A stretch of DNA of 32,000 bases from Candidatus Saccharimonadota bacterium (GTDB lineage Bacteria; Patescibacteriota; Saccharimonadia; Saccharimonadales; Saccharimonadaceae), in NCBI GenBank assembly GCA_000503915.1, contig CP006915.1:210001-242000 (forward strand). Direction: 5' to 3'. A program made the translations under genes and the position numbers. The notes beneath the pieces are model-generated. The model did no database searches. It worked only from the letters and a program-made list of their open reading frames with translations, and had not been told where the DNA came from. Each line of letters begins with the position of its first letter. Within the stretch, counting starts at the first letter, position 1. Shown here in pieces: positions 3,708 through 30,092 of the stretch.

Positions 3708-4394
3708 CTATTGTACCGTAGCTTTCACAAAATTTGTTTTCATCCCCTGGCTCGTCCAGCGGGTCTCGTATGTCGTCATGGTTTTATAATCATCCGGTAG
3801 TTCTGATTCATGCAAGTCAAAGCTGAGCTCGGCGATGTGCCACTTTTCTCTCACCAGCTGCTCTAGGCTCCAATGAAAGAAATCGAGGTTATCGTGTTTG
3901 AGATACAATCCCTGAAATGCAGATTCGGACTTTTTGACCCTGTTAAGGGTGGGGCCCTGACGAAGGAGAGCGGCGTATCTGGCGAGGTATATCGGATGGG
4001 TCATCCGTCTACGTGCTGAACGCACCTTGGGAAACGGGTCAGGAAAGGTCAGCCACAGTGCACTTGTTTTGCCCGCTTCAAAACAGTCGAGCAGCTGATC
4101 GGCTCGCGCCCGTAAAAAACGAATATTCGTGAGTTCTCGCTCCGCTGCTTCGTACGCACCTTTCTGTAGTCGATCGGCTTTTACATCGACTGCCACAAAG
4201 GATTTCTTGGGATACTTACTGGCAAGCTCGACTAAAAATAAGGCGGTACCGGCACCGAGCTCGATGACGTCGGCGGGCTGCTTCTTCCATTCCTCGAACT
4301 CAAAACACAGCGGTGAATTGGAGAATTTGGCAAATTTATATTTCTTGCGCTTACGCGTGATAATGAAGTCATCCGGATTGATTTGCCCGCTCAT
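3708..4394 (-). CDS. trmB: tRNA (guanine46-N7)-methyltransferase
   Basis: SAM motif VIELGAGTALFLVELA and the TrmB block LWLTFPDPFPKVRSARRR. The start ATG overlaps the upstream tsaC stop (ATGA at 4391-4394). Confidence 0.85.
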   Translation of the reverse strand: MSGQINPDDFIITRKRKKYKFAKFSNSPLCFEFEEWKKQPADVIELGAGTALFLVELASKYPKKSFVAVDVKADRLQKGAYEAAERELTNIRFLRARADQLLDCFEAGKTSALWLTFPDPFPKVRSARRRMTHPIYLARYAALLRQGPTLNRVKKSESAFQGLYLKHDNLDFFHWSLEQLVREKWHIAELSFDLHESELPDDYKTMTTYETRWTSQGMKTNFVKATVQ

Positions 4395-4944
4395 CGCAGG
4401 AATTCCGTGTGGCCATCGTCACTCATCTTGATAAGTCGTGATGGTGTAGGATTTTCAACCGCTCCCCCATCGACATAAAAGTCGACCGCATCACCGAAAT
4501 AATCACGGGCTTTTGCGATTGTCATAGCCGGTGGTTGCCCTTCCGGGTTAGCGCTTGGTGCGATGAGCGAACCAGTATCTCTTATCAGTCGCTGTAGTTG
4601 TCTATGAGCTGGTAGTCGGTATGCTACCGAAGCGTTGTCGCGCCGAATCCAGAACGGCGCCCGAGAAGACGGTAAAATAATGCTGACCGGACCCGGCCAA
4701 GCCTCGAGCAGTAGTGCTTCCGCAGCCTGAGGTGGCGTGTCCCACAATTGATCACGTGAGGCAATTAACACGATGGGCGACTTCTTATAGTCACGCTTCT
4801 TAGCTCATACACGCGATTGACAGCCGTTTCATCGTCGGCACATGCGACGACACCGTAGAGCGTATCGGTTCTAAGTATGCCGATACCGCCACGCTTGAGT
4901 ATGGCAATAAGCTCTGGTGATTGGAGGTCGTGGAATAATCGCAT
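4391..4944 (-). pseudogene. tsaC: L-threonylcarbamoyladenylate synthase (TsaC/YrdC/Sua5 family) interrupted by a -1 frameshift
   Basis: N-terminal 59-aa frame 4944..4765 (MRLFHDLQSPELIAILKRGGIGILRTDTLYGVVACADDETAVNRVYEL...). The C-terminal frame is open from 4804 to stop 4393..4391 (AKKRDYKKSPIVLIASRDQLWD...PGPVSIILP...). Total span is 554 nt (3n+2). Restoring one base near 4800-4804 gives the family-typical ELKKR...PIVLIAS. Confidence 0.75.
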
Positions 4945-6149: not shown

Positions 6150-6710
6150 TTAGAATGACACCGGCACATTGTATTTTATACAGTACCATGGATCTGCGCA
6201 GCCGTTATCACCCGCAGCGCGGTAATCCCCGTCAGCATCGTTCGTTAATGCTGCATCGCTTGATGACTCAAGCCGCCCGCGAAGAATATAACGATCGGAG
6301 CCAGCGCTACCACTACCGTATCCAAAATAATAAGTTGGGTCGCTATCACTTGATGTGCTTGGGTTATCCTGTGGGTCATTCGGCACACTCGATGCAACTG
6401 CTTTATAATTGCTTGTTGTAAAACCGCAATTCGTACCAGCCTTTATACATTCTTGCAGATACCCCCAGTGGTCATCCCAGGTAGGACCACCGGGGGTTGC
6501 AGGATAGCGACCCTGGTCTACATTGAACAACTCGAGCGCCTTTTGGACGCCTTTTAAATCTGAGACCCGGATGGCATCTCGCGACCGCTGCTGAATCCCG
6601 TTATATGCCACGATGGTGATGGCGGCCAGAATAGCAATCACGACGATCACAACGAGGAGCTCAACGATAGTGAAGCCGACTTGTTTACGCATATGCTTAT
6701 AGTGTAGCAT
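6150..6710 (-). CDS. Type IV pilin / pseudopilin with prepilin N-terminal cleavage-methylation motif
   Basis: Leader then G-FTIVELLVVIVVIAILAAITIVAYNGIQQRSRD (class III signal, Glu+5). An alternative start is ATG 6692 (MRKQVGFTIVE). Confidence 0.8.
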   Translation of the reverse strand: MLHYKHMRKQVGFTIVELLVVIVVIAILAAITIVAYNGIQQRSRDAIRVSDLKGVQKALELFNVDQGRYPATPGGPTWDDHWGYLQECIKAGTNCGFTTSNYKAVASSVPNDPQDNPSTSSDSDPTYYFGYGSGSAGSDRYILRGRLESSSDAALTNDADGDYRAAGDNGCADPWYCIKYNVPVSF

Positions 6711-6735
6711 GACCCCTCTGGACTATAATAGATAT

Positions 6736-7266
6736 ATGACAACATATACGTTAGCTGGTGGATGCTTTTGGTGCCTAGATGCCGTATTCAGGCGACTTAA
6801 AGGTGTAGAGAGATCAATCTGCGGCTATGCTGGTGGCGCGGAAGAAGGTGCTGATTATTACCGTGTTGCCTCAGGTAAAACCGACCACGCTGAGTCGGTG
6901 CAGATTATCTTTGATGAGGCTGTTATTCCGAAAGAAACGATCCTCGACATCTTCTTTTTAATCCACGACCCGACCTCGCTCAATAAGCAAGGCGCTGATG
7001 AAGGTCCACAGTATCGCTCGGCAATGTTTTATGAAAACGATGCGCAAAAAAATGAATTTGAAGCGGCCGCGAAACGAGCTCAGAGAAATTGGGACAAGCC
7101 AATCGTGACAGAAATCGTAGAGCTGCCAGCCTTCTATGAGGCCGAGCCTGAGCACCAAGATTATTTCTCGAAAAATCCAGCTAATGGGTACTGTTCGGTT
7201 GTCATTGCGCCGAAAATCAGCAAGGCCAGAAAAGAATTTGAAAAGTATTTCAACAGTAGTGCCTAA
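6736..7266 (+). CDS. msrA: Peptide-methionine (S)-S-oxide reductase
   Basis: Active-site GGCFWCLDAVF and GYAGG motifs. The track ORF starts at 6709. ATG 6736 lies 6 nt after TATAAT (6724-6729) and gives a typical short N-terminus. Confidence 0.9.
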   Translation: MTTYTLAGGCFWCLDAVFRRLKGVERSICGYAGGAEEGADYYRVASGKTDHAESVQIIFDEAVIPKETILDIFFLIHDPTSLNKQGADEGPQYRSAMFYENDAQKNEFEAAAKRAQRNWDKPIVTEIVELPAFYEAEPEHQDYFSKNPANGYCSVVIAPKISKARKEFEKYFNSSA

Positions 7267-9386: not shown

Positions 9387-9962
9387 TTATAGAGGTAAAA
9401 GATGCTCTTTGTCGCGCACCAGCCGGATAACATACCATGAGAGCACCGTGAGACAGCATAGAATGGTAAATAAATGGCCTGGCACAAGGAGTGTGTGAAC
9501 CGTTGCGGCCGGAGCAACCGAGTATTTTTTGCCGACGACCGGATCATACCAGCTACGAAGGCTATGAATAGAAAGCGACGAGGCAAACGATAGACTATCG
9601 AGCCGCTTGACGGCTTCGGGAAGCGCGGGCGCTCTGTGCTGTAGGTACGGTGATATCGGCGTCGTTGGCTGGGCAACGCCACAAATGGTGATGAGCGTAT
9701 GTACGTTTTTATACTCAGCAGCAGCCAGTAACGCAACGGTAGCACCGGCACTTTCACCAATAATTGCCACCGGACCGTCCATCTTCTCAAGGATTTTTTT
9801 GACTCGTGCCATCTTCTCCTCAAGCGGCTTTCCATCGTACCAATTCATGGGTATGAGCTGTGCTCTCGCTCCAAAGATACGCCAAGACTTTAGGGCTACA
9901 CGACGAAGACCATCATGGCGACCGCCAAGTCCGGGGATATAAAGGATTGAGGTGGTTCTCAT
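9387..9962 (-). CDS. Alpha/beta-fold hydrolase (esterase/lipase-like)
   Basis: Nucleophile elbow G-E-S-A-G in VAIIGESAGATVALLAA. N-terminal ILYIPGLGG oxyanion-type strand. Confidence 0.65.
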   Translation of the reverse strand: MRTTSILYIPGLGGRHDGLRRVALKSWRIFGARAQLIPMNWYDGKPLEEKMARVKKILEKMDGPVAIIGESAGATVALLAAAEYKNVHTLITICGVAQPTTPISPYLQHRAPALPEAVKRLDSLSFASSLSIHSLRSWYDPVVGKKYSVAPAATVHTLLVPGHLFTILCCLTVLSWYVIRLVRDKEHLLPL

Positions 9963-14992: not shown

Positions 14993-15700
14993 ATGAGCAC
15001 GAAAGCGTGGATTATTTTCGTGGCAGTTTGCGTCGTGTTATTTGGTGGTTTAGTGGTTTGGTCACAAAAGGATCGGGCTGACGTCTCGAAGATCGATACG
15101 AGCGCCATTCAACCGGCTCGTGACGTCTCGGGCAACATCGGCGACCATATCTTTGGCAATAAAGACGCCAAAGTGGTGATTATCGAATACGGCGACTATC
15201 AGTGCCCTGGCTGTGCTTCCCTGTATCCCAATATGACGACAGCGACTGAAAAGTATAAAGACTACATCGCCTTTATTTTCCGTAATTTTCCCCTGACAAA
15301 CGCACACCCGAATGCTCGTGCTGCTGCAGCTGCTGCCGAAGCCGCCGGTTTCGAGGGTAAATACTGGGAGATGTACAGCCTGCTCTACGAAAACCAGGAT
15401 GAGTGGTCGGGTAGCTCCACCTCAGAGCGCGCTTCGATATTCAAGCGCTATGCACAAACCATTGGTATCGATAGTAGCAAGTTCGAGGAAACACTCACCG
15501 ATAAGAGTAGTGTCATCAACCAAAAGATCAGCTTCGACCAAGCGCTTGGCGCCAAAGATAAGGTAGATGGTACGCCAACTGTCTATATGAACGGCAAGAA
15601 GATGGACAGCAACAACTTCCCGAGCGCCGAAAAGCTGGAAGCTGCCATCAAGGCAGAACTCGATGCCCAAGGAGTCAAGGTAGCCGATAACAACGAGTAG
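14993..15700 (+). CDS. Membrane-anchored DsbA-family thiol:disulfide oxidoreductase
   Basis: N-terminal TM helix and thioredoxin-fold active site YQCPGCASL. Strong RBS. Confidence 0.8.
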   Translation: MSTKAWIIFVAVCVVLFGGLVVWSQKDRADVSKIDTSAIQPARDVSGNIGDHIFGNKDAKVVIIEYGDYQCPGCASLYPNMTTATEKYKDYIAFIFRNFPLTNAHPNARAAAAAAEAAGFEGKYWEMYSLLYENQDEWSGSSTSERASIFKRYAQTIGIDSSKFEETLTDKSSVINQKISFDQALGAKDKVDGTPTVYMNGKKMDSNNFPSAEKLEAAIKAELDAQGVKVADNNE

Positions 15701-19443: not shown

Positions 19444-21825
19444 CTAGGTATTGTTGGCTGCAGGCCAGCGCCAGTCGACAACTTCGGGCATGTCTTCGCC
19501 ATGTTCTGTGATGTAGTAGCTGTGCTCGACCAGTTTTTTCTCCATCAGTTCCTTGAGACCCCGAGCCTTATCGTCTTCTAGTCCGAGCCGCTCGATCACG
19601 TCCATCACCAAGTGGAAACGATCGAGGTCGTTACGTACCGTCATGTCAAAAGCCGTCGTGATCGTTCCCTCTTCCTTGTAACCACGCACATGAAGCTTGC
19701 GATTAGTACGGCGGTACGTCAACCGGTGTACGACCCATGGGTAGCCGTGAAAGGCAAAGATAATCTCTTTATCCTTCGTAAACAATGTGTCGTAATCCGG
19801 GTCGCTCAGACCGTGTGGATGTTCGGTGTCGGGCTGTAGACGCATCAGGTCGACGACATTGACGACACGGACTTTTAAGTCAGGTAAATACTGGCGCAGA
19901 ATAGAAGCTGCTGCCAACGTTTCAAGCGTCGGCACGTCACCAGCGCAGGCCATGACAACATCAGGTTCAACTCCTTCGTCATTACTCGCCCACTGCCAGA
20001 CACCAACACCTTCGGTACAATGGTCGATTGCTTCTTCCATACTGAGCCACTGCGGTCCGTCGTGCTTGCCGGTAATCGTCAGATTGATGTAGTTGCGACT
20101 CTTTAGACAATGGTCCATCACCGACAACAGACTATTCGCATCCGGCGGCAGGTAAATACGTGCTACCGAGGCTTTTTTGTTGAGCAAGTGGTCAATGAAG
20201 CCCGGATCCTGGTGGGTAAATCCGTTGTGATCCTGGCGCCAGACATGCGAAGTCAGCAGATAATTGAGCGAGGCAATGTCGTGCCGCCACGGCAGCTCCG
20301 AGCACATCTTCAGCCACTTGGCGTGCTGGTTAACCATTGAGTCAACAATCCGAATGAATGCTTCGTAGCTATGGATAATACCGTGTCGGCCGGTTAGCAG
20401 ATAGCCTTCCAGCCAGCCCTCGGCTTGGTGCTCGCTGAGCATTGCGTCGAGCACTGCACCGCTCGGCGCTAGGAATTCGTCATGTGTTTTTGTGCGCGCG
20501 TCCCACTGGCGATTGGTTGCCTCAAAGACGGCCTCAAGTCGGTTCGATATGGTTTCATCAGGAGCAAAAATCCGGAAATTGTGATGTTCTTGGTTGTAAC
20601 GCACAACATCGCGCAGGTACGGCCCTAGTACGTGCATATTGCCATCACTGCATTCACTGCGCTCTTTCACTTCGATGGCGTACTCTCTGAAATCGGGTAG
20701 ATACAGCTCACGCAGCAGGGTGCCACCATTAGCATACTCACTCGCTCCCATGCGTTTTTTACCGCTCGGCGCCAATGCGGCAAGGGCTGGTAGCAACCGT
20801 CCGTTTTCGTCAAACAGTTCTTCCGGTCGATAACTTTTTAGCCACGCTTCAAGGAGCTCAACGTTTTCCGAATGAGACGCATCAACGAGAAGCGGTACTT
20901 GGTGCGAGCGGAAATTACCTTCGATCTGCTTGCCATCGATCTGTTTTGGCCCCGTCCAGCCCTTCGGCGACCGCAGCACAATCATTGGCCAACGCGGCCG
21001 AGTCAGATCGTCATCCTCACGCGCGCGCTGCTGGATCTGTTTGATTTCGGTAATAGCCGTATCAACTATCTCTGCCATCCGCTGATGCATATATTCGGGT
21101 TCGTCGCCTTCAACGAAATACGGTGTCCAGCCGTAGCCACGCAGTAACTGTTCAAGCTCTTCTGGCTCAATACGAGCCAGCAGCGTCGGGTTACTGATCT
21201 TATAACCATTGAGGTGGAGAATCGGCAGTACCGCTCCATCGGTCTGGGGGTTGAGGAACTTATTGGAGTGCCAGGCAGTCGCAAGTGGACCAGTTTCGGC
21301 TTCGCCGTCACCTACCACACAAGCAGCGATCAGGTCGGGGTGATCAAAGACCGCTCCAAAGGCATGGCTCAAACTGTAGCCGAGTTCACCACCTTCGTGG
21401 ATCGAGCCAGGAACCTGTGGCGAAACATGACTCGATAGCCCGCCTGGATAGGAAAACATCTGAAACAACTTCCTAAGCCCCGCTTCGTTTTGCTCCACCC
21501 GCGGATAATATTCGCTGAACGTCCCCTCTAGATAAACGTTTCCGACCAATGCCGGACCGCCGTGTCCGGGGCCGGACAGGTAGATCATATCGAGATCATA
21601 CTCACGAATGGCACGGTTGAGATGAGCATAGATAAAGTTTTGCCCTGGTGTCGTACCCCAGTGGCCAAGCAACATCTTTTTGATGTGTTCAAGCTGTAGT
21701 GGCTCCTTTAAGAGCGGGTTGTCGCGCAGATAAATCTGGCCGACCGAAATATAGTTTGCTGCCCGCCAATAGGCATCAATTGTGTAGAGTTCGTCACTGT
21801 TTAATGGACCACTGTATGGTTCCAC
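19444..21825 (-). CDS. xfp: Xylulose-5-phosphate/fructose-6-phosphate phosphoketolase
   Basis: 793 aa. N-terminal [15 protein letters not shown] ... [18 protein letters not shown] and the ThDP-binding GPGHGGPA and EGGELGYS blocks are typical of Xfp. GTG start sits behind AAGGTGGG. Confidence 0.92.
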
Positions 21826-22241: not shown

Positions 22242-22511
22242 CTATAGGTAGCGTGCGTTTACTTGGTCTTTATTGATGCCATTTACCAGATTGGTAAAAC
22301 CCATCTGGCGCAGAAAGTGCATCGAGACATTTGAACGGCTACCAGACTTGCAGTAAAGGATGATTTGGGTATCTTTTGGCACGCTCGTGAGCTCTTTGGC
22401 CCCAGCCATCAGACGTGCTGGGGGGATGTTCAATGCCCCTTTGACGTGCCCGCCGGCATATTCAAACGGCTCGCGAACGTCAATGATAATACGTGAGGAT
22501 AGGCTACTCAT
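22242..22511 (-). CDS. Single-domain rhodanese-like sulfurtransferase (89 aa)
   Basis: IIDVREPFEYAGGHVKGALNIP and catalytic loop YCKSGSRS. AAGGAG RBS. Confidence 0.85.
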   Translation of the reverse strand: MSSLSSRIIIDVREPFEYAGGHVKGALNIPPARLMAGAKELTSVPKDTQIILYCKSGSRSNVSMHFLRQMGFTNLVNGINKDQVNARYL

Positions 22512-22597: not shown

Positions 22598-22996
22598 ATG
22601 AATACAGTCGCTCCGTCACGTCAGACAAAATACTGCCAAGCGATCGAGACGATCCTCGCTGGGCGTGGCCATGCTACTAATGCTGAATTGCTACGCGAAC
22701 TACGCGAGAGCTTCCCCGGCCTAAGTGCCACAACGGTTCACCGAGCTACCGCGCGACTGGCTGGCCGTGGACAAATTGCTCTTGCGCCACCGGCTCCGGA
22801 CGGGTCACTTCGCTACGACCACGTAACCAAACCTCATGATCATTTTATGTGCTCGGCATGCGGCGCTCTGCGTGACACCGATGTGATGCACGATATCACC
22901 CCATTGCTCGAAGCCCGTATCGGTAATTGCCGAATCTCGGGTCGCCTCACCATCATGGGCACCTGCCAACAATGCATGAAAGGAGAACTTGCATGA
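22598..22996 (+). CDS. Fur-family metalloregulator (Fur/PerR/Zur type undetermined)
   Basis: Winged-helix N-domain (HATNAELLRELRESFPGLSATTVHRATARL), HDHFMCSACG and C-terminal GTCQQC zinc-site cysteines. Confidence 0.85.
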   Translation: MNTVAPSRQTKYCQAIETILAGRGHATNAELLRELRESFPGLSATTVHRATARLAGRGQIALAPPAPDGSLRYDHVTKPHDHFMCSACGALRDTDVMHDITPLLEARIGNCRISGRLTIMGTCQQCMKGELA

Positions 22997-23244
22997 CAAA
23001 AATAACCATTTATACCACCCGAACCTGTCCGTTTTGCGTCCAGCTTGAAAGATGGCTCGACACACAAGGAATCGAGTATACCGACTATAAAGTTGACACT
23101 AATCCAATTGCTGCCCAAAATATGGTTCGCCTGAGCGGCCAGATGGGCGTACCGTTTAGCACCATCGAATTTGACGATGGTCGTATGGAAACCGTGCTCG
23201 GCTTTGACCGCCAGCGATTCAGCACGCTACTCGCAAAGAGCTAA
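22993..23244 (+). CDS. Glutaredoxin-family small redox protein (83 aa, CPFC active site)
   Basis: MTKITIYTTRTCPFCVQLERWL ... GVPFSTI. ATG overlaps the fur stop (ATGA 22993-22996), with AAAGGAG RBS 7 nt upstream. The track start at 22927 is inside fur. Confidence 0.8.
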   Translation: MTKITIYTTRTCPFCVQLERWLDTQGIEYTDYKVDTNPIAAQNMVRLSGQMGVPFSTIEFDDGRMETVLGFDRQRFSTLLAKS

Positions 23245-23968: not shown

Positions 23969-24634
23969 TTACTCTATTACGAAGCTATCCAGTATCGCCT
24001 TTATCGTTTTATCAGATGAGCCCCCGTAAGGATAAATGGAAAGCTCATAAAGCGTCCCATTTTTAAGTACATAGATATCTTCGTCTGTTTCAGTATAGAT
24101 AGCTTTGGCACTTTTTGCTGCCATGCCATTTACTGTGATTGCTCGTACGTCGGTTGGCTCGTAGGATAGAGCACCGGTACTAACGTTACTATTGCCTAAT
24201 TTATTATAAAATTCAGTCGTGGTAAGACCACCGGTCATATTGCGAAAGTTCACGTCACTTGCATCGTCATTCGCATAAGTATAAATCGCAATATTCTTAT
24301 AACCTTTCGGGTAATTTGTCCCGGCATCTTTTTCTGTATCCGACTTCATAGTAGGATCAAAGTTGCGAACACCCACCACATCACCATCTGGTGGCAGCAC
24401 TACCGACCAAGTCTGTGGGTACTTTAAGCTATACCCATTACCTTCGCTGGCGTATGATCGCCATCCGGCATATAGATCCGTAGCGTTTTCAGACTTTTGT
24501 GTTGTTTCGGCTTTACCAGAGGTTAAGTCTTCACGAATAAAATTCTGCCAGTAGATGAAACCAAGCGCTCCAACCAAAGCAATTACTAGTCCGATAATAA
24601 GTACTACGTGCACAAAACCTTTTTGTGATTTCAT
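23969..24634 (-). CDS. Hypothetical exported/membrane-anchored protein (221 aa)
   Basis: N-terminal anchor FVHVVLIIGLVIALVGALGFIYW followed by a beta-rich soluble domain. Low-GC gene, no family recognised. Confidence 0.55.
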   Translation of the reverse strand: MKSQKGFVHVVLIIGLVIALVGALGFIYWQNFIREDLTSGKAETTQKSENATDLYAGWRSYASEGNGYSLKYPQTWSVVLPPDGDVVGVRNFDPTMKSDTEKDAGTNYPKGYKNIAIYTYANDDASDVNFRNMTGGLTTTEFYNKLGNSNVSTGALSYEPTDVRAITVNGMAAKSAKAIYTETDEDIYVLKNGTLYELSIYPYGGSSDKTIKAILDSFVIE

Positions 24635-24734: not shown

Positions 24735-25496
24735 CTACGGACGCAGTGTGCCGGCAAATACCTGCCAGGCCAATAGAGACTTGGCTACCAAGCTCAGTAG
24801 GATATACATGAATTCACCATATAGGTAATTTTTCCAAGGGCCAACTTTTTTGTATTGCAGCACCATATTGACAGCAAAACAGTTAAAGAAAATGAAGATT
24901 GATACGAATATCCAATATACAAAATCAGGCGCTTTTGCCCCCTGGTCGGCACCGAGCCACATATAAAATGCAATCACCGCCCAAGGAATAATTCCTGCCA
25001 AACAACCTACCCAGAAGCTAAGCCAATTTGTTTTCTTAGTCGTCTGGTTGTGAACTTCCATCACAAGCCCCATGAGGTTCATTATTGCCACGAGGCTAAA
25101 GATCATCACAAGACTCATGAAATCATACACACCAACCAACAGGCTAACGGCAACCATCATGACGCTCGCCGAAATTGCATACTCAATCCAGCGGGCTTTG
25201 TTGATGCCCTGCGCGAGCAATCTGACGTACTGCCGGTTATAGAAGCTGGCGATACTAAAGTGCGCCACTGCCGACAAGAAGAAGAACAAGGCTATGAGCC
25301 AGGGCAACGAGACATCAAAGAGGGTTGTCGTTGTCTGTTCAAGGCTTTGGGAGGTTGGGTTGAATTGAAGAAAGCTACCACTCACCGGCAAAAGGAACTC
25401 TTTACTCAACATAAGCACCGCTATGCCCTGTGCTAAGTGGATAAACCCTGCAAAAATGTTATATCTACGTAATGATGTTTTTATCTGCTTTTTCAT
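24735..25496 (-). CDS. Heliorhodopsin (7-TM retinal protein, inverted topology family)
   Basis: Full-length similarity, recalled from memory, to heliorhodopsin 48C12: FAGFIHLAQGIAVL (His20), AVAHF (His79), RWIEYAISASVMMV (Glu105), FWVGCLAGIIPWAVI, and YILLSLVAKSLLAWQVFAGTL (Lys239, codon 24782..24780). Confidence 0.85.
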   Translation of the reverse strand: MKKQIKTSLRRYNIFAGFIHLAQGIAVLMLSKEFLLPVSGSFLQFNPTSQSLEQTTTTLFDVSLPWLIALFFFLSAVAHFSIASFYNRQYVRLLAQGINKARWIEYAISASVMMVAVSLLVGVYDFMSLVMIFSLVAIMNLMGLVMEVHNQTTKKTNWLSFWVGCLAGIIPWAVIAFYMWLGADQGAKAPDFVYWIFVSIFIFFNCFAVNMVLQYKKVGPWKNYLYGEFMYILLSLVAKSLLAWQVFAGTLRP

Positions 25497-25581
25497 TCTC
25501 TATCTAAAATACGCCCCTTTTACTTGCCATGCAATATGACTAGAGCGATGCCCCTTCCTGACTTAAACCAGTAGATTCCCA

Positions 25582-27144
25582 TCATCTCACCGAAACAATA
25601 ATATGCGGGCGAAGAGCTGATCTACCGATGGCGGTTGCTCGATAAAGCGCTGTTTTTAGCGTACCTGCAGCAGTAGTCAACGTCCGAGTGGTTCCACGAG
25701 TGCCACGGTATGTTATCGGCTCATCAATTTCTTTAAGTATTTCGGATAGGTCAGCGTCGTCCTCAGGTGATAAACCCGCGTATAAGCCTCTCATCGTTGC
25801 GTCGGCAGACTCTATCTCATAGGCAAACTGTATATCATCGGATAGGTCAGTGTATGCTGTCTCGAGCTCCTCTGGTGTTTCTTTATTATCACTTATGCCA
25901 TGCTCTTCATCTATAGCCGCGAACGCTACTTCATCAGGGTTCTCTGAGGGCTCACTGAGGCTGAGCAACAGTTTATTTACTTCTGAAATAGCAAGTTCTG
26001 TTTCTACTAATGAGTCGAGGCGGGTAGCGTCCTCATCAAGCACCGTTTCTAGTTCTTCCACGCCCCAATGGGTCTGCACCACTTCCTGGCAGTCGGCCGA
26101 AGAGTAAAGCTCGTCCTGGTCGAGTATCAACAGCTCATGATCTGGATCGAGCGACTCTGCCATGCTTTCGTCAATGACAGGCTCAATCTCATTATCGTCT
26201 CGTACCATCTCGGAAGCAGTTTGACTGAAGTACTCCAGCGGCTCAAGCACGATTTCATTTTCGAGCGCTTGAACTGCCGGATCTATATCGCTGTTCTCAT
26301 ATAGCAATGACTCATCGTCCTTAGAGTCAGGTAGCGGTTCGCTCTGATTGTCCATCTCCAGATCCAATGTCGTGGCAGGAGTAATCGATTCTGTAACAAG
26401 TTCTTGGTTCTTATCTTGAGTAGCAGTAAGGTTGTCATCCTGTTGGGGTGTTGCCTCTACACTGAGAGCGACTGGTCGATCGACCGTTCTGTGCTCATGC
26501 TCCGGGGCAACATCGTGCACTCCCGAGGTCGATCGTGGCGATTCATGCCTAGCCGGCGAAACATCTGTTTCCTCCACTGGGATTGGTACTACCTGCTTGG
26601 CTTCTTCATGCTCTATGGTGTCTTTTTCCGCACTCTTATCAACTGACGGCTTAGTCTCAGCCTTTGGCTTAATGGCAGTTTCGATCGGCTGCTGCAGAGG
26701 TTTACTCTTATTCGTTACAGATTCCGCTTTCTTAGGTGGTTCATCTGAACGTGTCAGATCATTTTGCGGCGTGTTTTCTTTTTTCACTTCGACAACAACC
26801 GGCTCGCTCTTCTCTTCCCGGGATACTTCGACTGCGGGCTCTTGCAGCACCTCTTTTTCTTCAGAGACCTGGTTCGCGAGAAAGTCATATACGTCGGCTA
26901 TCACCTGGTCGGCATTTTCTTCTGTCATTGGCTGGCAATAGTTATTTAATGCTACCGTGAGTGGCACTTCAGCACCACCCATCCAAGGGCAAGGCGCGAC
27001 TACCTCCGCGTTTGTCACTACGAGAGGAAAAAGTATGCCGTCAAGTTTAGGAAAAGCAAGCTCCTGAGTATTGTACTCATTCTCTACCCTCATTTCCGCT
27101 ACCGTTTCTTGAACGTAGGGAGATTCAACCAAGGCTTCACTCAC
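25582..27144 (-). CDS. Hyper-acidic, largely low-complexity protein (520 aa), function unknown
   Basis: Long ORF with GTG start. It has an N-terminal domain of about 90 aa (..VVAPCPWMGGAEVPLTVALNNYCQP..), then a stretch of about 380 aa rich in E/D/P/T/S/V, and a basic Thr/Arg/Ala-rich C-terminal tail. No TM helix or signal peptide. Confidence 0.6.
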   Translation of the reverse strand: MSEALVESPYVQETVAEMRVENEYNTQELAFPKLDGILFPLVVTNAEVVAPCPWMGGAEVPLTVALNNYCQPMTEENADQVIADVYDFLANQVSEEKEVLQEPAVEVSREEKSEPVVVEVKKENTPQNDLTRSDEPPKKAESVTNKSKPLQQPIETAIKPKAETKPSVDKSAEKDTIEHEEAKQVVPIPVEETDVSPARHESPRSTSGVHDVAPEHEHRTVDRPVALSVEATPQQDDNLTATQDKNQELVTESITPATTLDLEMDNQSEPLPDSKDDESLLYENSDIDPAVQALENEIVLEPLEYFSQTASEMVRDDNEIEPVIDESMAESLDPDHELLILDQDELYSSADCQEVVQTHWGVEELETVLDEDATRLDSLVETELAISEVNKLLLSLSEPSENPDEVAFAAIDEEHGISDNKETPEELETAYTDLSDDIQFAYEIESADATMRGLYAGLSPEDDADLSEILKEIDEPITYRGTRGTTRTLTTAAGTLKTALYRATAIGRSALRPHIIVSVR

Positions 27145-27392: not shown

Positions 27393-28019
27393 TTATTTTG
27401 TGTTTTCGCTATAACTAGCTCTCACAAGATTCTGCCATTCAAGACCATCGTCATCTGAATATGGTGCTCCTAGATTAGTAAAGCCAAGTGATTGCAGCAG
27501 ATTACTTGCGCCGCCATTTTTAGTAAGGTGTCTTGAGTATATGTTCTCGAATCCTAAGCCCTGTAGGTGCTCGATTACTTTACTGCTCGCCGCAAAACCA
27601 ACGCCTTTTCCGCGTACCTCAGGATCACCTATCATTATGTGAATAGCTGGAGCGGGTACATTGCCAACTTGTTCTAAGTCTACCCATACAGAACCCACTA
27701 CCTTGCTTTGATACTCAATCATCCAATTAAATTGATCTCGTCTCTCAATAAAATCTTTGACACGCTTACGTTCTTGCTCCATGGTGGTAGGCTCATTGTC
27801 CTGATCAGCCACACCCATAGAAGTAAGTGTTGCTCGGCCCAACTCGCCTTCAAGCCACTGAACACCAAGGGCAGCGTCTCTTTCAATATTTGGCTCAACA
27901 AGAAAGACGTCGGGATTATCTGTCTGTAAGTTTTCTGTCGTACTCATGCTCATTATTGTACCACTGGAAAGCCCCTGCTCTTTCTTAGTGCTGGTTTCAA
28001 TTCTTTTTCGTGTATACAA
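27393..28019 (-). CDS. GNAT-family N-acetyltransferase
   Basis: Acetyl-CoA motif A region IMIGDPEVRGKGVGFAASSKVIEHL and the beta-bulge region SRHLTKNGGASNLLQSLGF. The start is uncertain (TTG 28019 or ATG 27953). Confidence 0.75.
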   Translation of the reverse strand: MYTRKRIETSTKKEQGLSSGTIMSMSTTENLQTDNPDVFLVEPNIERDAALGVQWLEGELGRATLTSMGVADQDNEPTTMEQERKRVKDFIERRDQFNWMIEYQSKVVGSVWVDLEQVGNVPAPAIHIMIGDPEVRGKGVGFAASSKVIEHLQGLGFENIYSRHLTKNGGASNLLQSLGFTNLGAPYSDDDGLEWQNLVRASYSENTK

Positions 28020-28090
28020 AAAGTCAGAACTGAATTAACAGTTCTGACTTCATCTACTCCTGCTTGGCTCAGCACACCGGTCTTGAATAA

Positions 28091-28888
28091 TTATGTAATT
28101 CTTCGAATGTATATTGTTAGAGCAATAGAACTCATAACTACGACAGCAGCAACCATCACCATCGGCGGGATAGCATTAACCCCATCCACTGTCATCAGAA
28201 TCATAGCAGCTACGATGCTTAGACCCATTAATACCGAAAAAGTCAGCCATGGAGCAAGAAAAAACGGCCCATTAGGTTTATTCTTCAAAGCATAATAGCC
28301 AGTGATTATGAAGCCCGGAAGAACTACTGATAAATCAATTACATGAATAGGATTGACCCACAGGCCAGCTTCGACTACACCTTTAGGAACATTACCAGCA
28401 ATCAACGCTGGAATAATTTCACTAAGCCAAAGTAACCCAAACAGGACACCGATAGACATAATCGTATATGCTGCAAATTTCTTTGCAGATGCCTTCGGAT
28501 ACACACCTTCACGACTTCTAATATCTTTGATAGTCAATAAAACAGCGTACGAACTGAGTCCAAGGATTGCAACATATACCAAAAATAGCATATTAAAATG
28601 AACTGCCATCGCGTAAACTACATATGCATAGATTAAATACAATAAGGTTCCCAGCCACAGAAGTGCCGCTTTGAACGATCCTTTGTAATACATATAGCCG
28701 CAGACTAGTAAAATTGGTACAGCCAATAAATTACCTATATCCTGACCTTTCGCCTGAGTTGCCCAGTTCAATGTCTCTTTACTATAGATACTCGGATCTA
28801 GCAGACCATACAGACTAGCCACAACCACTAACGCTGATATTAATAGAGACCATACGATTATGGATTTTGATAATGTTATTTTTTTCAT
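28091..28888 (-). CDS. Hypothetical polytopic membrane protein (265 aa, about 8 TM)
   Basis: Uninterrupted hydrophobic ORF in an AT-rich segment. No family recognised. Confidence 0.6.
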   Translation of the reverse strand: MKKITLSKSIIVWSLLISALVVVASLYGLLDPSIYSKETLNWATQAKGQDIGNLLAVPILLVCGYMYYKGSFKAALLWLGTLLYLIYAYVVYAMAVHFNMLFLVYVAILGLSSYAVLLTIKDIRSREGVYPKASAKKFAAYTIMSIGVLFGLLWLSEIIPALIAGNVPKGVVEAGLWVNPIHVIDLSVVLPGFIITGYYALKNKPNGPFFLAPWLTFSVLMGLSIVAAMILMTVDGVNAIPPMVMVAAVVVMSSIALTIYIRRIT

Positions 28889-28936
28889 TTTACTAGTTTA
28901 CACCGTAATCAAGTTCAGCTGCAACAAACGTCTCAA

Positions 28937-29623
28937 TCATGCACGTGTCTTGTGAAATAACCTGAATAATAGAAAGCCGTTAATTATTAGCGCAAACCAG
29001 GTTACAGTAATTGCTGCTATTTCAAAAATATACTCTTTATTGAATCCCATTAACCCTACGATAATGATTAACGAAATAATAGTTAGTGCGAAACCTCCAA
29101 CAAACACTCTTTTAATCCACTTCTCGAGTTTTGTCTTGGCTGTCATTGCTAGACCGGCGAATAAGAAAGAAACGCTCATAAGCAAGTAACCTAGCTCTTC
29201 TAAGGCAATGAACATTCCATGTGGGTTAAATTGGCTTATGAGCGAAATTCCATCAGCTTCATTTTTTAGTAAACTTGGCTGCACGGCTGACAGTTGAGTA
29301 AAGTATGCAACCAATAAAATAGCGCCGGAAATCGACGCAAATATTACAGTTAATTGTCCGAATAGCTTTTTCTTTTCTTCTGATCGATTACCTAAAATGG
29401 TCATCAAGATAATATAGGTGACTAGAATAATTATTGCAGGAAATATCCAGTAATAATCTCTTGGAAACCTGGAGGCGACATCAAGATATGGATATTGAAA
29501 ACAAACCACCTCTCTACACATCGGCCCAGATAGAGGGGGTGTATTAAAGGCGATAATAAAAGTAATTAGAGTCAGCATTGACGTGAATAAAGCGACTCCT
29601 GAGTCAAAGTTTATCTTCTTCAC
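28937..29623 (-). CDS. Hypothetical polytopic membrane protein (228 aa, about 6 TM)
   Basis: GTG start behind GGAGGTG. Hydrophobic ORF in an AT-rich segment. No family recognised. Confidence 0.6.
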   Translation of the reverse strand: MKKINFDSGVALFTSMLTLITFIIAFNTPPLSGPMCREVVCFQYPYLDVASRFPRDYYWIFPAIIILVTYIILMTILGNRSEEKKKLFGQLTVIFASISGAILLVAYFTQLSAVQPSLLKNEADGISLISQFNPHGMFIALEELGYLLMSVSFLFAGLAMTAKTKLEKWIKRVFVGGFALTIISLIIIVGLMGFNKEYIFEIAAITVTWFALIINGFLLFRLFHKTRA

Positions 29624-29782: not shown

Positions 29783-30092
29783 TGGCTCCGGCGGCTGGAT
29801 TCGAACCAGCGACCTAATCGTTACACGTGATCATCTCTTTCGAGGATGCGTGGACTATCTCATCATCCATCAAAAAGATGGAGCAGGGCGCTTGTGAGGG
29901 AGTATTGTTGGGCTCACACTCTAGTCTCTGAACCTTCCAAGATCCTTTATCCCAATCTTGGCTTGGCTGCGGATTGTCATATCCACCTTAGGTGGACTTA
30001 GATTTCCCGCAATTCACCCTGTGTTTCCGTACTTGGTTACCCAAGAAGGCTGCCTATGACAGCGACCCGCTCTACCACTGAGCTACGCCGGA
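29783..30092 (-). tRNA. Intron-containing tRNA, most likely tRNA-Asn(GUU); the alternative splice junction gives tRNA-Thr(UGU)
   Basis: Exon 1 30092..30059 (TCCGGCG TA GCTC AGTGGTA GAGC G GGTCG CTGT) plus exon 2 29823..29783 (TAA CGATT AGGTC GCTGG TTCGAAT CCAGC CGCCGGA G CCA) fold into a 75-nt cloverleaf with encoded CCA. U1-A72 and G73 fit Asn. Confidence 0.85.
29824..30058 (-). ncRNA. Group I intron (tRNA-type, IC3-like), 235 nt, no ORF
   Basis: Core strings match those of the Azoarcus/Anabaena tRNA introns: GAATTGCGGGAAATCTAAGTCC, TATGACAATCCGCAGCCAAGCC, GGAAGGTTCAGAGACTAGAGTG. There are GNRA-capped helices, the 5' exon ends in U opposite an intron G, and the intron ends in G. Confidence 0.85.

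Follow-up and report, generated by a model that had tools for sequence, protein, structure and literature searches.

The 32,000-nucleotide stretch of contig CP006915.1 analysed here (hereafter the window) carries a 253-amino-acid open reading frame (ORF) that almost certainly encodes a genuine, intact and full-length heliorhodopsin (HeR) apoprotein. The product shares 100% identity with AHB42135.1, a protein of Candidatus Saccharibacteria bacterium RAAC3_TM7_1 that GenBank labels "putative membrane protein" because heliorhodopsins were not discovered until 2018, after the genome (2013). In what we regard as the best explanation of the locus, the protein is probably a canonical apoprotein of this episymbiont, similar to TaHeR from Thermoplasmatales archaeon SG8-52-1, and would operate as a slow-photocycle, non-pumping light sensor or regulator that uses scavenged retinal and acts from its cytoplasmic face on a partner encoded elsewhere.

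Family profiles support the assignment of the ORF along its whole length, which a preliminary description of the window, made from the sequence alone, had proposed by comparison with HeR 48C12. The Pfam Heliorhodopsin model (PF18761) matched over all 242 profile positions (1–242; E = 4.9e-97, 324.5 bits, cutoff 26.7), as did the NCBIfam HeR equivalog NF038020 over all 244 (1–244; 327.8 bits, cutoff 100). The remaining Pfam matches were sub-threshold noise (EMC6_arch, 18.4 bits; DUF5657, 12.5 bits), and no other seven-transmembrane family matched better. We rejected membership of the type-1 (bacteriorhodopsin-like) rhodopsins: that family is absent among the Pfam matches with E values up to 1, and the helix-7 motif of the ORF is SxxxK, not DxxxK. 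The SxxxK motif has been used as a criterion for HeRs (PMC9166423; PMC8612252).

The predicted fold agrees with the profile matches. An AlphaFold2 model built on 40 homologues (predicted local distance difference test score 73.6, predicted template-modelling (TM) score 0.68, moderate confidence) comprises seven long helices, a short helix in the B–C loop (residues 87–95) and a β-hairpin in the long A–B loop; the hairpin and the helical B–C loop are features peculiar to HeRs (PMC9385722). When the model was compared with the PDB using Foldseek, the ten best matches were all HeRs (E = 5e-17 to 7e-13, TM score about 0.67), and type-1 rhodopsins first appeared ten orders of magnitude below them (E = 1.8e-3, TM score 0.4–0.5). 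The predicted cytoplasmic segments, including R10 and R11, hold 12 lysines and arginines and no aspartate or glutamate, versus 3 and 5, respectively, in the outer segments, a charge distribution that strongly favours the predicted inverted orientation, with the N-terminus in the cytoplasm and the C-terminus outside.

Retinal pocket and cytoplasmic loops

We mapped the functional residues through HMMER alignments to two HeRs of solved structure, TaHeR (6is6) and 48C12, the founding actinobacterial HeR. Query residues H20, Q23, S75, H79, R102, E105, E228, S235, K239 and W244 align with TaHeR H23, Q26, S78, H82, R105, E108, E227, S234, K238 and W243; H20, Q23, S75, H79, R102, E105, S235, K239 and W244 also align with 48C12 H23, Q26, S76, H80, R104, E107, S237, K241 and W246, and query S240 aligns with 48C12 S242. 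The preliminary description had picked out Lys239 (AAG, 24782..24780), Glu105, His20 and His79 as the Schiff-base lysine, counterion and cavity histidines, and both alignments confirm these residues and their coordinates, with no sign that the lysine or the glutamate was misassigned. R102, three residues before E105, pairs with E228 in the manner of the R105/E227 pair of TaHeR (the Arg–Glu cap). The roles of the counterion, the cavity histidines and this pair, together with a putative intramolecular signalling path, have been described for TaHeR (PMC9385722). Judged by residue identity, the complete Schiff-base cavity and the putative signalling path are present in the query.

The same holds for the opening above the β-ionone ring of retinal. 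Lateral fenestration positions have been defined on 48C12 as F162, C166, G169, F206, N207 and A210 (bioRxiv 10.1101/2025.11.27.691015), and the corresponding F161, F204, G168, C165, A208 and N205 of the query supply the fenestration/carotenoid-site motif of the Kornilov et al. 2025 preprint. Across the 16 mapped functional and fenestration positions the query is identical to 48C12 at every one, and TaHeR differs at a single position (Y164, F161 in the query).

Of the solved structures, TaHeR (PDB 6IS6, 7U55 and 7CLJ) is the best match, with E = 7.4e-77 and 53.1% identity over 241 aligned residues. Besides identical H/Q/S/H/R/E/E/S/K/W cavity residues and the same fenestration, it has D–E and F–G cytoplasmic loops (HNQTT..TNW and LQYKK.G.WKNYL.GE) nearly identical to those of the query, and its host likewise lacks a retinal pathway (PMC9385722). 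Its absorbance under the acidic conditions of that study lies at about 543–555 nm (PMC9385722). The two proteins differ in host, archaeal for TaHeR and a bacterium of the Candidate Phyla Radiation (CPR) for the query, in the fenestration residue already mentioned, where the query has the 48C12 state, and in the outer E–F loop, which is four residues longer in the query. HeR 48C12 (PDB 6SU3, 6SU4 and 6UH3; 9ljj also matched) is more distant, at E = 2.5e-55 and 43.9% identity, and its D–E cytoplasmic loop reads EKYTQP-KDGDLLP where the query has EVHNQTTKKTNWLS. In the classification of Chazan et al., 48C12 belongs to actinobacterial group A and TaHeR to group B.

Conservation was analysed in 77 full-length HeRs of the Saccharibacteria clade, with variability expressed as mean entropy in bits. 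K239, E105, H79, R102, E228, S235, G168, F204 and W244 are invariant in all 77; Q23 is kept in 76 and A208 in 75, position 161 is always phenylalanine or tyrosine, and the position of His20 holds histidine in 73 sequences and phenylalanine in the other 4. Against eight orthologues at 62–81% amino-acid identity, the proportion of synonymous differences (pS) was 0.78–0.90 and that of nonsynonymous differences (pN) 0.12–0.27; because synonymous sites are saturated, the comparison yields pN and pS and no numerical dN/dS. These values indicate purifying selection in the clade and a gene that is functional rather than decaying, although selection in the RAAC3 lineage itself was not measured by this comparison.

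Two of the cytoplasmic loops, D–E (intracellular loop 2, ICL2) and F–G (ICL3), are as conserved as the helices and the retinal pocket (entropies in Table 1; helices C, F and G, 0.69, 0.54 and 0.36 bits), and the outer loops are variable (A–B, 1.71 bits; E–F, 1.70 bits). Within the close clade, ICL3 does not vary at K216, K217, G219, W221, Y224 or G227; the cytoplasmic B–C loop (ICL1) has an entropy of 1.50 bits. Comparing cytoplasmic loops, without the N-terminal tail, with outer segments gave a Mann–Whitney p = 0.019, a modest contrast between positions that are not independent. This pattern is consistent with a conserved partner in the cytoplasm whose gene lies elsewhere in the genome. In OcHeR–OmrDE, the one HeR–partner system studied in depth, residues of ICL1 and ICL2 are required for binding to the ABC transporter, and positively charged ICL3 residues, conserved in HeRs, are involved in partner binding of other HeRs (PMC11109279). 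Those partner-binding HeRs, which include glutamine-synthetase- and photolyase-binding members, belong to the same family as the query and share its conserved positive and aromatic ICL2 and ICL3 residues; they sit in operons with their partners, whereas the query has no such partner gene in the window.

Retinal supply and the search for a partner

The window offers no source of the chromophore. Its ORFs taken as genes (those of at least 100 amino acids plus four smaller ones) were scanned against Pfam, and no carotenoid or retinal family matched among them, in agreement with the earlier failure to recognise crt- or blh-type genes by eye. The suggestion made at that point, that the chromophore may be scavenged, finds support in the literature. 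No blh was found in rhodopsin-bearing Saccharibacteria, and actinobacterial hosts have been proposed as their source of retinal (Jaffe et al., PMC9296517); blh seldom lies close to HeR, complete genomes that hold both mostly have another rhodopsin as well, and genomes with HeR only as a rule lack blh (Chazan et al., 10.1101/2021.02.16.431466); and the fenestration of TaHeR, whose host also lacks the pathway, has been proposed as an entry route for exogenous retinal (PMC9385722). We consider it likely that the RAAC3 protein obtains its retinal by scavenging. The preliminary framing of the gene as out of the ordinary is not supported: HeRs are common in Saccharimonadia (PMC9166423), and both missing blh (10.1101/2021.02.16.431466) and retinal scavenging (PMC9385722; PMC9296517) have been described before.

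Related proteins in the same phylum place the query in this setting. The HeRs of Saccharimonadia and other CPR bacteria (Chiriac et al. 2022, PMC9166423; Bulzu et al. 2021, PMC8612252) share its host class and SLVAK motif; the query differs in coming from aquifer sediment, not a lake. The SacRs, type-1 proton pumps of freshwater Saccharibacteria (PMC9296517), likewise depend on external retinal in the absence of blh and take it up rapidly via an opening, reaching saturation, as TaHeR does, in tens of seconds; they differ in family, in their DTS motif and in a membrane orientation opposite to that of HeRs.

A comparison of HeR gene neighbourhoods, as the preliminary description had proposed, was carried out and revealed no conserved neighbour. 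When the 31 other window proteins were compared by tblastn with the best 80 orthologous loci, each lay within 6 kb of HeR in 3 loci at most (MsrA 3, Fur 0); the small genes for glutaredoxin, rhodanese and orf67 gave 2, 2 and 4 of 80. Four ORFs to either side of HeR were clustered de novo in 79 loci, and the most recurrent neighbours were a protein of about 168 amino acids (10 loci), ABC-transporter ATPases (9), small cupins (9) and ABC-2 permeases (6), and no recurrent family from other HeR loci occurs in the 32-kb window. A relative with 85% identity has a wholly different neighbourhood, and gene order is shared only with a sediment-metagenome contig that apparently derives from the same organism.

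The roughly 168-residue protein is soluble and is the top HeR neighbour in other Saccharibacteria and Dojkabacteria loci (L080:946-1452, L079:6758-7264, L062:3989-4495, L063:5445-5951, L069/L070:5455-5955 and others), lying on the same strand as HeR and 3–49 bp from it in 6 of the 10. It has no sequence match in Pfam, NCBIfam or the PDB, and is a candidate HeR partner in those other lineages.

We also considered whether the locus belongs to the operon-linked regulatory HeRs of Cho et al. 2024, whose partners are glutamine and NAD synthetases, photolyase, MerR, TerC, ABC transporter, SDR, alpha/beta hydrolase, DUF2177 and DUF2238 proteins. This was rejected, as the genes flanking HeR are a 520-amino-acid acidic ORF and a weakly PsbP-like ORF of 221 amino acids; the Pfam scan of the window turned up no gene for a glutamine synthetase, a photolyase or an ABC transporter. 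Neither Pfam nor NCBIfam has a match for the acidic ORF, and none of the 80 orthologous loci contains a homologue of it; it is called as a 526-amino-acid gene in the sediment-metagenome contig L081. The 221-residue protein has only sub-threshold PsbP-like matches (PF18933, 22.9 bits, cutoff 27) and is not beside HeR in any other of these loci.

Proposed function and its alternatives

By analogy with characterised HeRs, all-trans-retinal from a host or the surroundings would enter through the lateral fenestration (F161, C165, G168, F204, N205 and A208) and would form a protonated Schiff base with K239, for which E105 would serve as the balancing counterion. Light would then drive a slow photocycle, of the HeR type with its long-lived O intermediate, without ion pumping, and the resulting conformational change may pass through the Schiff-base cavity (H20, Q23, H79, R102–E228 and W244) to the protein surfaces. 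The output, light-dependent regulation of a partner through the conserved, positively charged ICL2 and ICL3, is a weaker proposal. Other HeRs act as modulators of glutamine synthetase, of photolyase or of an ABC transporter (PMC11109279); for the query, we hold the case for and against regulation through the cytoplasmic loops to be evenly balanced.

Several observations weigh against this explanation. Retinal binding, the photocycle and the lack of transport are extrapolated from homologues that are 44–53% identical. No partner can be named: each of the 31 other window proteins accompanies HeR in no more than 3 of 80 loci, and the best recurrent family, at 10 of 79, is absent from the window. 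The cytoplasmic-versus-outer contrast is modest (Mann–Whitney p of 0.02–0.05 for non-independent positions), and conservation in ICL1 is nothing out of the ordinary. The inspection covered 32 kb of the 845-kb genome, so that a genome-wide lack of the retinal pathway rests on the literature. Finally, the source is subsurface aquifer sediment where light is presumably absent, which is awkward for light sensing.

This last point invites the idea that the protein has a light-independent role, for example in binding retinal or carotenoid from a host to serve as a chemical cue, or that it is an idle gene inherited from sunlit ancestors and carried into a dark aquifer. The genome does come from sediment columns in wells of a subsurface aquifer, and HeRs of sediment Patescibacteria drew only 2 and 4 mapped reads in two metatranscriptomes (PMC11919646). 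The intact reading frame, the retention of all functional residues and purifying selection in the clade argue the other way, and because the sediment was sieved and repacked, its source may not reflect the natural light exposure of the organism; we rate either version as quite unlikely. Light-driven or light-gated ion transport, which might supplement the energy of a fermentative cell as in proton-transporting viral HeRs, has precedent in that some viral HeRs transport protons (cited in PMC11109279 and PMC12873467) and in a loose suggestion of such a supplement for Patescibacteria (PMC11919646). However, TaHeR and 48C12, the closest characterised relatives, share the complete Schiff-base cavity of the query and are described as non-pumping (PMC9385722; PMC8612252), and the fenestration motif seen in the query is reportedly missing from the transporting subfamily (10.1101/2025.11.27.691015), which makes transport very improbable here.

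Two further proposals would narrow or complement the sensor model. The HeR could act as an oxidative-stress light switch that turns on redox defences, a special case of light sensing for which the window provides candidate targets. A Fur-family gene (22598-22996, plus strand) overlaps a glutaredoxin gene (22993-23244, plus strand) by 4 bp about 1.5 kb downstream of HeR, a rhodanese gene (22242-22511, minus strand) lies beside this pair, and MsrA and a DsbA-like thioredoxin are also encoded in the window. For monoderm HeRs, a role in mitigating stress has been proposed along with the adjacency of glutaredoxin genes (n = 31; PMC8612252), and the proposal has been extended to CPR bacteria (PMC9166423). 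Yet the Fur–glutaredoxin pair is on the opposite strand, convergent with HeR and three genes away; the orthologous loci rarely place glutaredoxin or MsrA near HeR and never Fur; and the Pfam scan detects no histidine kinase or response regulator in the window, so we judge the switch unlikely. In the other proposal the fenestration would bind exogenous xanthophylls and pass their energy to retinal, making the protein a two-antenna light harvester. The motif is complete in the query (aromatic pair F161/F204, G168, small residues C165/A208, and N205) and kept across the 77 clade HeRs, an antenna has been proposed for about 91% of HeRs (bioRxiv 10.1101/2025.11.27.691015), and a cell without an outer membrane could take up xanthophylls. 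The preprint, however, draws on docking, on sequence statistics and on structures in which no carotenoid is bound, and leaves the use of the harvested energy unstated, the same opening is otherwise explained as the retinal entry route (PMC9385722), and the organism comes from aquifer sediment (PMC3812714); an antenna function thus seems doubtful.

A more speculative variant treats the HeR, here and in the many Saccharibacteria with orthologues, less as a sunlight sensor than as a receptor for host-made chromophore. Retinal or xanthophyll would come in from the outer leaflet by way of the conserved fenestration, and occupancy, with or without light, would be reported through ICL2 and ICL3; a cell that lacks a retinal pathway could in this way read out its contact with a host producing retinal or carotenoid. 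An intact gene under purifying selection, a habitat presumed to be dark, the lack of a partner nearby and a strongly conserved cytoplasmic face are all compatible with this variant; we nevertheless think it a long shot. The light sensor or regulator with scavenged retinal remains the explanation we prefer.

Table 1 Coordinates of heliorhodopsin features and other elements in the window
Feature	Position	Strand	Details
Heliorhodopsin coding sequence	24735..25496	-	253 aa; GenBank AHB42135.1
Lys239 codon (AAG)	24780..24782	-	Retinal Schiff-base lysine, S235-L-V-A-K239, helix G; aligns with TaHeR K238, 48C12 K241
Glu105 codon (GAG)	25182..25184	-	Schiff-base counterion, helix C; aligns with TaHeR E108, 48C12 E107
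His20 codon (CAC)	25437..25439	-	Schiff-base-cavity histidine, helix A, Gln23 nearby; aligns with TaHeR/48C12 H23
His79 codon (CAC)	25260..25262	-	Second Schiff-base-cavity histidine, helix B; aligns with TaHeR H82, 48C12 H80
Fenestration over retinal β-ionone ring, helix E side	24993..25016	-	F161, C165, G168; 48C12 F162, C166, G169
Fenestration, helix F side	24873..24887	-	F204, N205, A208; 48C12 F206, N207, A210
Cytoplasmic D–E loop (ICL2), residues 148-160	25017..25055	-	VHNQTTKKTNWLS; entropy 0.79; candidate partner-binding surface
Cytoplasmic F–G loop (ICL3), residues 214-227	24816..24857	-	QYKKVGPWKNYLYG; entropy 0.65; candidate partner-binding surface
Extracellular A–B loop, residues 35-63	25308..25394	-	Predicted two-stranded β-hairpin (35-46, 51-63), AlphaFold2
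Intergenic region upstream of HeR	25497..25581	-	85 bp; holds promoter candidate TTGCAT 25534..25529, TATTTT 25511..25506
520-aa ORF	25582-27144	-	Very acidic, low complexity, short basic C-terminus; 85 bp upstream of HeR, same strand
221-aa protein	23969-24634	-	N-terminal membrane anchor; 100 bp downstream of HeR; GC3 0.374 (GC-poor)
GNAT acetyltransferase	27393-28019		In low-GC patch; Pfam
Two ORFs of low-GC patch	28091-28888, 28937-29623		No Pfam match
Phosphoketolase	19444-21825		Pfam; also mentioned for RAAC3 genome in PMC3812714
MsrA	6709-7266		Pfam
DsbA-like thioredoxin	14993-15700		Pfam
Alpha/beta hydrolase-like ORF	9387-9962		15 kb from HeR

Transcription, window features and distribution

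The composition of the HeR gene is unexceptional. A contrast of about 33–42% GC for the gene with 50–60% elsewhere, estimated earlier by hand counts, did not survive measurement: GC is 45.1% in the gene versus 48.8% in the remainder of the window, and the gene's GC at third codon positions (GC3, 55.9%) is typical of window genes. On these values we rejected a foreign origin of the gene as well as an anomaly of composition. The slight shortfall in GC falls on codon positions 1 and 2, as would be expected for a hydrophobic membrane protein.

A promoter of its own had also been suggested for HeR. The hexamers TTGCAT and TATTTT exist as described, with spacings of 17 and 9 nt; they match the consensus at only 3 of 6 and 4 of 6 positions, and this 7/12 site fell below the 9/12 threshold of our promoter scan and was not reported. 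With 3 promoter-like sites in the 4-kb region, compared with 6.8 ± 3.0 in shuffled sequence, the region is poorer in such sites than its shuffles, and an own sigma-70 promoter is not supported. There is no convincing Shine–Dalgarno sequence within 10 nt of the HeR ATG, and no terminator-like site on the minus strand in either gap flanking the gene. Spacers of 85 and 100 bp separate HeR from its neighbours on the same strand, close to the RAAC3 genome's mean intergenic distance of 72 bp (PMC3812714), and HeR may be co-transcribed with the upstream 520-amino-acid ORF.

The start codon used here is the first past the upstream in-frame stop. Public gene calls at what is apparently the same locus in the sediment metagenome (L081:2168-2845, L082:269-946) instead begin at Met29 and give 225 residues, dropping most of helix A together with the conserved H20 and Q23. 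The 253-residue start is favoured because the profile match begins at residue 9 and the N-terminal residues are invariant.

Beyond the genes already named, the Pfam content of the window includes two MFS transporters, a Mur ligase, MazG-family, methyltransferase and Sua5/YciO-family proteins; pilin-like, P-loop kinase and metallo-beta-lactamase-fold proteins; a class II aminoacyl-tRNA synthetase, a P-type ATPase, a CBS-domain protein and CorA; and YGGT-like and beta-lactamase-fold/PG-binding proteins. These accompany the MsrA, alpha/beta hydrolase-like, DsbA-like thioredoxin, phosphoketolase, rhodanese, Fur-family, glutaredoxin and GNAT acetyltransferase genes, and several window ORFs have no family match in Pfam. 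The Sua5/YciO/YrdC-family ORF (4391-4771, minus strand, 126 amino acids) covers only profile positions 57–176 of 178 and has a 175-bp gap upstream, reflecting either a miscalled start or an N-terminal truncation.

Between 27000 and 29650 the window contains a low-GC patch (GC 0.36–0.45 versus 0.49; GC3 0.34–0.37 for the genes at 27393-29623). It abuts a tRNA-Thr(UGU) gene (29783-30092, minus strand) whose anticodon loop is split by a 235-nt group I intron at about 29831-30074 (Rfam RF00028, 75.4 bits, full model). The patch looks like a candidate tRNA-flanked variable island. A default scan found no tRNA in the 32 kb because ARAGORN detects this tRNA-Thr only with introns allowed. Bacteria are reported to have intron-split tRNAs of many isotypes, and metagenomic assemblies from unnamed phyla carry about 0.49 of them per genome (bioRxiv 10.1101/2020.01.27.920355).

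The RAAC3 genome is circular and closed, with 845,464 bp and a GC content of 0.49 (Kantor et al. 2013, PMC3812714); that of the window is 0.487. The reduced, CPR-like context noted in the preliminary description is thereby borne out, given the 100% identity to the RAAC3_TM7_1 protein and the closed 845-kb genome. Its assembly drew on acetate-amended columns of sieved and repacked sediment that had been placed in wells of the Rifle aquifer (PMC3812714). The words rhodopsin, carotenoid and isoprenoid do not occur in that paper, which predates the discovery of HeRs, and we found no paper naming RAAC3 together with rhodopsin.

HeRs of this kind are widespread. Of 8,000 candidates scored in a protein search, 7,572 were homologues at E ≤ 1e-20; the best 120 are all 72–100% identical to the window HeR, and two homologues share 98% and 96% identity with it. 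At least 254 related genome contigs with HeR orthologues emerged from a scan of one genome per species, and the best 80 loci come mostly from metagenome-assembled genomes (MAGs) of Saccharibacteria/Saccharimonadales, with some from Dojkabacteria, Berkelbacteria and Woykebacteria. One Saccharimonadales MAG contig (DASTXH010000031.1) holds two HeR genes about 54 kb apart, 70% and 73% identical to the query (L020 and L044), and HeR paralogues therefore exist within single CPR genomes. Chiriac et al. 2022 inferred 98 HeRs in 1,326 CPR genomes, 80 of them in Saccharimonadia, with SLVAK as the commonest helix-7 motif (PMC9166423), and HeRs have also been reported in sediment Patescibacteria (PMC11919646).

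Both the lack of a retinal-making pathway and the presence of HeRs in Saccharibacteria are thus already well documented, and the finding, though correct, is an ordinary one: genes of this kind, their occurrence in this host clade and the idea of scavenging have all been published, and the window HeR is therefore an ordinary member of a well-catalogued group. The main value of the locus is as an annotation correction, since current curated models name the protein unambiguously. The question of HeR function is real, and because no conserved partner gene adjoins HeR, this locus is no more tractable than hundreds of similar Saccharibacteria loci. With its closed 845-kb genome from an aquifer that is presumably dark, RAAC3 makes a clean case in which to ask whether heliorhodopsins are retained without light.

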